DNA of 52,102 nucleotides from Rickettsiales bacterium (lineage in GTDB: Bacteria > Pseudomonadota > Alphaproteobacteria > Rs-D84): the NCBI GenBank assembly GCA_031288835.1, contig JAITQO010000016.1, positions 74,167 through 126,268 on the forward strand, written 5' to 3'. Of this stretch, positions 5,647-5,830 are shown piece after piece. The notes under the pieces are model-generated. The model did no database searches. It had not been told where the DNA came from and was given only the letters and a program-made list of their open reading frames with translations. Within the stretch, counting starts at the first letter, position 1; the number at the start of each line of letters is the position of its first letter. A program made the translations under genes and the position numbers.

Positions 5647-5830
5647 TCTTTAATCTCCCAATTAAAAAAAGACCGCCAAACAAAGTTGGTGGTCGGGGGT
5701 TAAAACAATCAAACAGTACTTGACCCCGCATTCTTGCGAGATGCGGCATCCCGACCATAAGTCGGGACAATAATTCGTCAGTGTACTGTCGGGTGCTTTA
5801 AGCCCTTCATACTAACTTTGTCCGACAATA
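5647..5830 (-). promoter_or_regulatory. Structured 5' leader copy L1 (P1, P2, duplicated P1 arm, intrinsic terminator)
   Basis: Reverse strand: P1 TCCCGAC-TTATG-GTCGGGA (5749-5767). P2 CCGCAT-CTCGCAAGA-ATGCGG (about 5724-5746). Then GATTGTTTTAACCCCCGACC, with terminator GACCACCAA-CTTTG-TTTGGCGGTC plus T7 (5664-5694). Alignable base by base with L2 at 13039-13234. Confidence 0.7.

Follow-up and report, generated by a model that had tools for sequence, protein, structure and literature searches.

A pair of structured 5′ leader RNAs ending in an intrinsic terminator in a Rickettsiales bacterium, likely short-type members of a large attenuator family

This work concerns two leader sequences, here called L1 and L2, in a 52,102-nucleotide (nt) stretch of DNA from a Rickettsiales bacterium (GenBank assembly GCA_031288835.1, contig JAITQO010000016.1, positions 74,167 to 126,268), referred to as the window. 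The analysis confirmed the observation: L1 and L2 represent the same structured 5′ leader RNA, which carries its own transcription terminator. Judging from sequence comparisons, we consider it likely, with a probability of about 0.8, that they form part of the short type within a large family of structured 5′ leaders acting in cis to control the next gene by transcription attenuation. The original prediction described the L1/L2 pair; the present analysis adds a family of more than 100 members, a pairing between the blocks GGCTTARAAC and GTTYTAAC, two alternative partners for the GTCRGGA strand, further copies in the window, and a kinship with sRNA-Xcc1.

L1, on the reverse strand, had been predicted to align with L2 along its full length, and it does so: the reverse complement of 5640-5860 and positions 13030-13240 share a mean column identity of 79%, with a global score 13 standard deviations above those of shuffled controls. 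All of the landmarks listed at the time were found, namely, AGTTRGT, GGCTTARAACACC, the TCCYGRC/GTCRGGA hairpin, the hairpin capped by TCGCAAGA (a GCAA tetraloop; this hairpin, originally termed P2, is P5 in the numbering used here), TGTTTGAYTGTTYTAAC, and GACCACC..GGYGGTC followed by a T tract. The 23-nt block TGTCCYGRCTYATGGTCRGGATG has two exact occurrences in the window (0.00 expected), and a hidden Markov model (HMM) built from L1 and L2 matches only these two short-type copies there (E values of 7e-66 and 2e-60). Both leaders end in the same order of signals: an intrinsic terminator, a ribosome-binding site, and ATG.

When approximately 1.7 kb around each copy was compared by BLASTN, a single significant match was obtained (5769-5664 versus 13112-13213; E = 1.4e-12), and the flanks outside that match (about 1.7 kb each) displayed no significant similarity. 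L1 and L2 therefore do not belong to a duplicated segment that includes flanking sequence. The genes behind them are unrelated, as had been stated: one encodes a protein of 137 amino acids (aa) without a Pfam match and the other a 176-aa PAP2 phosphatase (BLASTP E = 40). With similarity that stops at the leader edges and unrelated proteins downstream, the conservation belongs to the leader and not to a duplicated gene, and further evidence for this view comes from leaders in front of PAP2 orthologues elsewhere and in front of roughly 40 unrelated gene families. L1 was also said to start directly after tRNA-Leu(CAG). The conserved leader in fact begins about 85 nt downstream of this tRNA gene; by sequence reading, a weak promoter-like TTGCAA-19-TATGAT lies between the two. 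For L2, a promoter match (TTGAAA-17-TATTAT) is located at 13004-13032.

PAP2 homologues are frequent in metagenome-assembled genomes (MAGs) of uncultured Alphaproteobacteria/Rickettsiales. The PAP2 orthologue of GCA_045634865.1 is preceded by a homologous leader, and a longer variant is present in GCA_009782315.1. A search pattern built from four sequences, GGTCRGGRWGYN{30,60}TTYTAAN{1,3}YCCYGACC, was scanned over species-representative genomes and retrieved at least 117 matching stretches. This pattern represents what we call class A, to which L1 and L2 belong, and it fixes parts of three elements introduced below (P4b, the pseudoknot 3′ strand, and the 3′ segment). Among the matches listed, about 90% carry labels such as Candidatus Enterousia, "Alphaproteobacteria bacterium," or "Rickettsiales bacterium" (order Rs-D84), with the guts of human, mouse, chicken, horse, ruminant, and termite as sources, and about ten in other phyla lie inside coding regions and are chance matches. 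Typical leaders with equally typical downstream genes were also seen on MAG contigs assigned to other phyla (L016, L081 [labelled Bacteroides fragilis], L095, L116 [Muribaculaceae], and L062 [Endomicrobiia]), which are probably mis-binned Rs-D84 contigs. Enterousia is placed in order Rs-D84 and has genomes of <1 Mb with reduced metabolism (PMC12306168). No relevant prior description of such leaders was found in the literature on Enterousia, on Rs-D84, or on PAP2-linked riboswitch candidates, nor in that on leaders combining an anti-antiterminator with a pseudoknot.

Position and downstream-gene counts are based on 99 nonredundant copies among the matches listed. A terminator hairpin that starts within the GACC of the 3′ segment and is followed by a U tract was found in 97 of the 99, and a same-strand open reading frame (ORF) with a ribosome-binding site follows in 82 (median distance, 46 nt; 10th to 90th percentile, 41 to 61 nt). 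The orientation of leader to downstream gene is constant, and 58 of these 82 ORFs begin with a signal-peptide-like N terminus. Clustering and Pfam analysis of the downstream proteins yielded the approximately 40 unrelated families mentioned above. These include Cys-rich secreted proteins with Ephrin_rec_like repeats (24 members) and PAP2 phosphatases (22 members, mostly behind a short-type leader), the latter weakly resembling LpxE and undecaprenyl-diphosphatases. The others are GT2 glycosyltransferases, outer-membrane beta-barrel/Opacity-family proteins, LicD, PKD-domain proteins, a secreted nuclease, EcoRI-type and other DNA methyltransferases, and many orphans.

The leader consists of a 5′ segment, hairpin P1, strand P2a, a linker, P4a-loop-P4b, the GNRA-capped hairpin P5, P6a, P2b, P6b, the pseudoknot 3′ strand, and the 3′ segment; the terminator, U tract, ribosome-binding site, and ORF come next. 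RNAfold gave unusual stability for both L1 and L2 (z = -5.3 and -3.0). Two folds were evaluated on alignments of 16 short-type sequences (A3) and of 53 sequences of the 3′ module (A5). Fold I comprises P1, a pseudoknot of the P1 loop CUUAGAAC with GUUCUAAG, P2, P4, P5, and the terminator. On A3, Fold I with its pseudoknot leaves 96.7% of cells paired and has compensatory changes at 16 of 41 pairs; none of 500 shuffles was as good, and slid controls reached only 32 to 46% pairing. Within this fold, P1 is 95% paired and covarying, the pseudoknot is 98% paired with compensatory changes at 2 pairs, and such changes occur at 5 of 7 pairs in P2 and 6 of 8 in P5. The conserved blocks GGCTTARAAC and GTTYTAAC are mutually complementary, and their pairing constitutes the pseudoknot once the P1 hairpin has formed; in L1 it carries its own compensated variant, UUAAAG/UUUUAA.

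The alternative, Fold II, cannot coexist with Fold I. Its parts are P5, the antiterminator (AT) helix, in which P4b (GGUCRGGR) pairs with the 3′ segment (YCCYGACC), and the P6 hairpin (GGUCA/UGAYU), whose loop contains P2b. Fold II is 98.1% paired on A3. On A5, 96.5% of cells are paired in Fold II and 91.7% in Fold I, and both beat every shuffle. The AT helix is 99.4% paired in the 53 sequences, with purine:pyrimidine covariation outside what the search pattern imposed: pair 32-108 is AU in 29 and GC in 22 sequences and pair 33-106 is AU in 20 and UA in 7, at positions not tied by the pattern. Column 32 covaries with P4a as well (UA 27, CG 16), so that a single strand maintains its complementarity to two partners. 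In L2, a joint C-to-U, G-to-A, and C-to-U change has occurred in P4a, P4b, and the 3′ segment. The terminator stem likewise covaries (pair 116-136: GC 29, AU 21). The 3′ segment shares 3 to 4 nt with the foot of the terminator stem, and hence only one of the AT helix and the terminator can form at a time; P6 and P2 are mutually exclusive as well, P2b being the P6 loop. G-U pairs are common (46 of 53 sequences at P6 pair 76-97 and 39 of 53 at terminator pair 112-140); such frequent, strand-specific pairs point to RNA pairing and not to symmetry at the DNA level.

A further pairing involves the 5′ segment (AGTTRGT) and, within the same leader, the 5′ strand and loop of the terminator, to which this segment is complementary. 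Across 25 short-type copies, own duplexes average -8.0 kcal/mol versus -6.4 kcal/mol for cross duplexes (permutation p < 0.0002), and for L1 the values are -10.1 and -4.2 kcal/mol. RNAfold returns the resulting antiterminated rod as the minimum-energy structure of L1 (-66.1 kcal/mol, compared with -60.6 when the terminator is forced) and of L2 (-58.7, compared with -56.6), and it does so even for transcripts ending just short of the terminator 3′ strand. In L3, a long-type copy in the same window, RNAfold prefers the terminator fold (-86.3 versus -80.5 kcal/mol) with the pseudoknot not counted; this 7-bp pseudoknot would roughly close the gap.

In total, the window contains three clear copies (L1, L2, and L3) and three more divergent ones, whose positions are collected in Table 1 with those of the individual elements. 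R1, a covariance model of the class A 3′ module, scored L1, L2, and L3 at 91, 89, and 88 bits, and it retrieved 17 more weaker copies from the fetched loci. By sequence reading, the divergent copies keep the architecture with changed helix sequences. The class B copy, for instance, has different helices (GGCAAGGAGG/CCUCCUGCC) and a different pseudoknot (UAGUUAC/GUAACUA) in the same arrangement, and the PAP2 protein behind it is 48% identical to that behind L2. In an alignment of 15 class B sequences, every counted cell is paired, and the pseudoknot, which spans about 200 nt, is 100% paired with 3 to 4 pair types at three positions. Since the divergent copies retain the pairings and change the sequences, it is the pairing scheme, not a set of unpaired nucleotides, that is conserved across classes.

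Table 1. Leader elements, further copies, and related loci (positions are those of the window unless a locus is named)
Feature	Position	Strand	Sequence, pairing, or context
L1 leader	5664-5830	-	Whole-length alignment with L2
L1 5′ segment	5811..5823	-	GGACAAAGUUAGU; pairs with terminator 5′ strand and loop (5681-5692), short-type antiterminator; RNAfold minimum free energy, duplex test
L1 P1 hairpin	5791..5805	-	GGG-CUUAAAGCA-CCC; loop 5794-5802 pairs with 5700-5707 (pseudoknot); A3 pair counts
L1 P2a	5784..5790	-	GACAGUA; pairs with P2b 5712-5718; A3 pair counts
L1 P4 hairpin	5748..5768	-	P4a GUCCCGACU, loop, P4b; anti-antiterminator role
L1 P4b	5747-5756	-	GGUCGGGAUG; one base beyond hairpin; alternative partner 5691-5698
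L1 P5 hairpin	5726..5746	-	GNRA tetraloop GCAA at 5734-5737; pair counts
L1 P6 hairpin	5707..5725	-	GGUCAA...UUGAUU; P2b in loop; mutually exclusive with P2
L1 pseudoknot 3′ strand	5700..5707	-	UGUUUUAA; pair counts
L1 3′ segment	5691..5698	-	CCCCGACC; pairs with P4b (AT helix); overlaps terminator foot
L1 intrinsic terminator	5664..5694	-	GACCACC...GGCGGUC (5671-5694) and U7 (5664-5670); sequence, covarying stem
L1 ribosome-binding site and ATG	5644..5659	-	GGGAG; 137-aa Cys-rich secreted ORF 5233-5646
tRNA-Leu(CAG)	5916-6000		Upstream of L1
L2 leader	13060-13215	+	Whole-length alignment with L1
L2 5′ segment	13063..13076	+	CAUAGUUGGUGAGG; RNAfold, duplex test
L2 P1 hairpin	13077..13093	+	UCGG-CUUAGAACA-CCGA; loop 13081-13089; pair counts
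L2 P2a	13094..13100	+	AACAUUG; pairs with P2b 13162-13168
L2 P4 hairpin	13113..13134	+	P4a 13113-13121; P4b GGUCAGGAUG 13125-13134; pair counts
L2 P5 hairpin	13135..13155	+	GCAA tetraloop 13144-13147; pair counts
L2 P6 hairpin	13156..13173	+	GGUCA...UGACU; P2b enclosed; pair counts
L2 pseudoknot 3′ strand and 3′ segment	13173..13189	+	UGUUCUAA (13173-13180); UCCUGACC (13182-13189)
L2 intrinsic terminator	13186..13215	+	GACCACC-loop-GGUGGUC and U tract; terminator scan, sequence
P1* hairpin in PAP2 coding sequence	13239..13256	+	CAAGA-CUUAGAAC-UCUUG, codons 2-7; alignment A7
L3, long-type copy	17657..17885	+	Pattern match; before 166-aa Cys-rich secreted ORF 17902-18402
Class B copy	47483..47660	+	Before second PAP2 paralogue 47683-48231; R1 match 47544-47665, 29.7 bits, E = 7e-5
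Class C copy	29799..29945	-	Before 109-aa ORF 29434-29763; R1 match 29783-29885, 29.9 bits, E = 6e-5
Degenerate class B copy	6346..6466	-	Without U tract; R1 20.9 bits, E = 0.009
Class A	L1, L2, L3		Key P4b/3′ segment GGUCGGGR/YCCCGACC; P6 GGUCA/UGAYU
Class B	47544; 6346		Key CAGGAGG/CCUCCUG; P6 ACAAU/AUUGU
Class C	29783		Key GCGGGAU/AUCCCGC; P6 GGUCG/CGAUU
RF02221-type loci	L126:1380-1640; L127-L132 around 600-830		Pseudomonas plasmid and six temperate phages; BRO/antirepressor genes

Several features of these copies and their neighbors are recorded here in their own right. The class C leader has no separate terminator hairpin, its U tract coming immediately after the 3′ segment, and the 109-aa protein behind it has neither a family match nor a signal peptide. 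The degenerate class B copy, which lies upstream of the promoter of tRNA-Leu(CAG), falls within the 5′ end of a mechanically called 1,065-aa ORF (6214-9411, forward strand), whose true start is probably further downstream. Next to L3, two paralogous Cys-rich secreted proteins are encoded convergently (17902-18402, forward; 18483-18980, reverse) and have the motif (K/H)YCWCR...GG.W.FLGDY..A..C in common; only the first has a leader directly upstream. The window also contains a two-piece (permuted, alpha-type) transfer-messenger RNA (tmRNA) at 40070-40419 on the reverse strand (152 bits) and an SmpB ORF at 16682-17155 on the forward strand, which is consistent with an alphaproteobacterial origin.

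Within the attenuation model, the ratio of terminated to read-through transcripts would be set by competition among RNA-RNA pairings. P4 and P2 would form first during transcription; the 3′ segment, on emerging from the polymerase, could then invade the P4 hairpin via a 2-nt toehold (W33 and G34 with C105 and W106) and produce the AT helix. An alternative route in L1 and L2 may be capture of the terminator 5′ strand by the 5′ segment; otherwise the terminator would form. By analogy, this scheme may follow the decoy, antisense, and target logic of related phage elements of the sRNA-Xcc1 type, resembling the c4 RNA of phages P1 and P7. As to what tips the balance, we rank RNA-RNA competition first (possibly including trans action of terminated sibling leaders), a cation or metabolite second, and a protein third.

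Several observations weigh against this interpretation. Termination and read-through are both predicted from the sequence. Classes A, B, and C have no conserved unpaired nucleotide in common, and a ligand pocket is not evident. Part of the invariance in the helix portions fixed by the class A pattern is ascertainment, the covarying positions having been free in the pattern. Membership in RF02221 (sRNA-Xcc1) fails Rfam's own threshold. In addition, the phage analogy predicts pairing between leader and translation-initiation region, and in class A own duplexes of this kind are no stronger than cross duplexes (-9.50 versus -9.37 kcal/mol; p = 0.32), while for L1 and L2 such pairing is no better than in dinucleotide shuffles. 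Inspection by eye of class B initiation regions revealed no gene-specific match. A k-mer comparison of leaders with initiation regions did detect complementarity of at least 7 nt in 36% of copies versus 15% in shuffled and sense controls, an enrichment that probably reflects U-rich leaders facing A-rich initiation regions. The start of the PAP2 coding sequence contains the P1* hairpin, whose loop is identical to the leader P1 loop. In alignment A7 (11 orthologues), its stem is 98% paired, with compensatory changes at 3 of 5 pairs, and the hairpin is not present in 4 PAP2 genes that lack a short-type leader.

The same data were weighed against other explanations. A new metabolite or ion riboswitch, in which the P2/P3/P4/P5 junction and pseudoknot bind a ligand (Mg2+, a second messenger, or an envelope precursor), stabilize one fold, and thereby set termination, would account for the conserved multistem fold, the GNRA loops, the overlapping terminator and antiterminator, the near-isoenergetic folds, and the position upstream of many functionally related envelope genes. 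We nevertheless consider a riboswitch unlikely: the helices merely covary, with no unpaired nucleotides kept across classes, in the short type the P3 domain gives way to a linker whose length and sequence vary, and the homologous phage antirepressor leaders operate by RNA-RNA pairing. A sensor of cation-driven compaction is possible and would be compatible with these objections. Reading of the leader by an RNA-binding protein or NusG-like factor, for example, at the P0/P1 region or the P5 cap, with the protein choosing between terminator and antiterminator, is likewise improbable. The regulated genes, for envelope polysaccharide and surface proteins, fit such a factor, a set that we take to resemble RfaH/UpxY-type regulons, and long types do possess conserved peripheral motifs (the P0 GGGA loop and P5 AUAUAUUGAA). 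L1 and L2, however, keep the switch without these motifs, the P4 loop is variable, and no candidate protein was identified, none having been searched for.

A somewhat less probable explanation is that the copies are genes for trans-acting small RNAs (sRNAs), as published for sRNA-Xcc1, with the downstream ORFs incidental. Terminated leaders would indeed be stable, structured RNAs of 170 to 230 nt with complementary sequences common to siblings, and sRNA-Xcc1 was detected as a small RNA. Yet the 82 of 99 copies placed at a fixed distance of about 46 nt before a same-strand ORF with a ribosome-binding site, and the phage Xcc1 cores placed likewise 40 to 60 nt upstream of antirepressor genes, argue for a leader, and window searches for complements of the 5′ segment and key sequences gave only self matches or chance matches in coding regions. 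A trans role alongside the cis role is possible. Lastly, the repeats GGTCGGGA/TCCCGACC might be thought to act at the DNA level, as inverted repeats for site-specific inversion (phase variation) or as traces of a recent segmental duplication or mobile repeat. The AT helix is a perfect inverted repeat, and the gene set recalls phase-variable contingency genes (Opa-like outer-membrane proteins, LicD, glycosyltransferases, and methyltransferases). Against this stand the frequent, strand-specific G-U pairs, the covariation of P2 and the pseudoknot over 100 to 200 nt, which inversion does not explain, a would-be invertible segment of merely 50 to 70 bp, the unrelated flanks of L1 and L2, and the constant orientation toward the downstream gene. 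In a metagenome scan, the inverted-state flank signature was present in 0 of 64 matches; only this flank test was informative, as the pattern is the reverse complement of the normal element. A DNA element is thus largely refuted, and we regard it as extremely improbable.

At gathering thresholds, Rfam detected only tRNA and tmRNA in the window and in 18 family loci. In E-value scans, the leaders gave only sub-threshold sRNA-Xcc1 matches and class B gave nothing. The RF02221 scores of 22.3 (L1), 22.3 (L2), and 41.2 bits (L3) stay below the curated gathering score of 53, and that of L3 is the best among the copies examined; since an E-value scan of 8 long-type loci returned no Xcc1 match, the 41 bits of L3 are untypical of the family. 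A scan of viral contigs with the class A pattern retrieved no copy. A consensus-sequence search for Xcc1 in plasmids gave one partial match only and led on to phage loci. The true RF02221 member, L126 (72.6 bits), resides on a Pseudomonas plasmid upstream of a BRO-family gene, and its relatives lie 40 to 60 nt upstream of antirepressor genes in Mannheimia, Aggregatibacter, Stx2a, Rac-SA53, Aaphi23, and Bordetella phages. According to published work, sRNA-Xcc1 precedes symE in Xanthomonas integrons and an ORF6N protein in APSE and is a trans-acting sRNA of roughly 88 to 100 nt.

In the phage and plasmid loci, the 100 nt upstream of the Rfam core include a P1-like hairpin, GAGGCGUCGAAACCUC, that is near-identical to class B P1 and has a loop complementary to the J strand of the core, as well as a P2a complementary to the P6 loop, and P4a. 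Copies of the same sequences (7 to 11 nt) recur at the downstream ribosome-binding site, as an 11-mer in L126 and a 9-mer in L127. R1 scores the six phage Xcc1-type loci at 22 to 40 bits (E = 3e-7 to 4e-3) and L126, the sole locus confirmed as RF02221, at 13.1 bits (E = 0.49). The class B HMM matches two Escherichia coli phage loci (L129 and L130) at full length (E = 6e-11 and 1e-10). Three metagenome contigs (L142:7188-7270, L153:12839-12921, and L189:1833-1914), which are Xcc1-like by eye only, score 32 to 33 bits with R1 (E of about 1e-5), and their cores carry the exact class A key and pseudoknot strand (GGUCGGGGUG ... UUCUAAC-ACCCCGACC); by eye, they appear to bridge class A and the Xcc1 family. 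By these reciprocal model matches, the Enterousia leaders are divergent relatives of the Xcc1-type element, of which Rfam models only the 3′ half, and what was published as an Xcc1 "sRNA" looks like the 3′ half of a cis-acting leader. The link of L1 and L2 themselves to sRNA-Xcc1 is indirect, via their class.

A bolder proposal, which is conceivable but doubtful, is that Rs-D84/Candidatus Enterousia domesticated a phage-type antisense/decoy module and multiplied it to dozens of chromosomal copies in a genome of <1 Mb, where it became the main regulator of the envelope and secreted proteome. If so, the common "key" sequences (P4b/3′ segment and pseudoknot) could let terminated leaders act in trans on their siblings. 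Surface-protein expression might then be coordinated or mutually exclusive, under an RNA-only, immunity-like network in place of protein regulators or DNA phase variation. More generally, the leaders constitute a widespread structured RNA family with strong covariation support, below the threshold of every Rfam model, in a little-studied gut lineage with genomes of <1 Mb. The family precedes lipid-phosphatase, outer-membrane, glycosyltransferase, LicD, and Cys-rich secreted-protein genes, and the window has six copies within 52 kb; it could represent a major route for controlling the host-facing surface. Rereading the Rfam "sRNA" as the 3′ half of a longer leader with complementary partners on both sides would supply a testable mechanism for a widely annotated, poorly understood RNA. 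Two covariation-supported, mutually exclusive folds also offer a natural example useful for studies of cotranscriptional strand displacement.

Among known systems, the leaders resemble riboswitches of the ZTP/pfl, fluoride, and preQ1 type in their 5′ untranslated region location, a covarying multihelix fold, a pseudoknot 3′ strand adjoining the terminator, and mutually exclusive antiterminator and terminator helices. They differ in the absence of conserved ligand-pocket nucleotides and of an Rfam match, the variable short-type junction, and the lack of a known ligand. The likeness to three-helix attenuators (trp 1:2/2:3/3:4; PyrR; T-box) is one of layout: P4a:P4b would correspond to the anti-antiterminator, P4b:3′ segment to the antiterminator, and 3′ segment:terminator 3′ strand to the terminator. 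Unlike those systems, the leaders have a variable P4 loop, no conserved leader peptide, and no conserved loop of the T-box or PyrR type, the latter by sequence reading. As candidates for a leader peptide, an 86-aa ORF across L1 (5510-5770) is not conserved in L2, and an ATG-started ORF of 10 codons in L1 ends before P4a and has no equivalent at that place in L2.

With sRNA-Xcc1, the leaders have in common two hairpins (P5 and P6) enclosed by a helix of about 9 bp, which in the leaders is the AT helix (GGUCGGGR/YCCCGACC), an arrangement equal to Fold II; UUCUAAC-like and ACC sequences after the closing helix, with a U-rich tail; the AAUAC..CCC-GAAA-GGG..AAUA motif of long-type P5; and a position directly upstream of a same-strand gene. 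Xcc1, however, precedes antirepressor, BRO, or symE genes on mobile elements, whereas the leaders described here are chromosomal, present in many copies per genome, and placed before envelope and secreted-protein genes (PAP2, Cys-rich, outer-membrane, and GT2), and the published view of Xcc1 is that of a trans-acting sRNA, not a leader.

The c4 RNA is reportedly organized as a1 b1/a′ b′/a2 b2, an arrangement said to go back to Citron and Schuster in 1990 and Biere et al. in 1992. C4 controls Ant (PMC8201110). The C4 model (RF01695) had no match in the window at its gathering threshold, nor in the leader E-value scans, and the likeness to c4 (P1/P7 immI; RF01695; related IsrK) is one of logic, not of sequence: an antirepressor-leader RNA complementary to copies upstream of it and at the ribosome-binding site. 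The output differs, being an intrinsic terminator here versus translational repression with Rho-dependent polarity in c4, and the downstream target at the initiation region is represented here only by the P1* hairpin of the PAP2 genes. The phage Xcc1-type loci possess the full triple arrangement of upstream copy, antisense core, and ribosome-binding-site copy, and the leaders described here show its upstream part, in which the P1 loop pairs with the pseudoknot strand and P2a with P2b, both pairings covarying.

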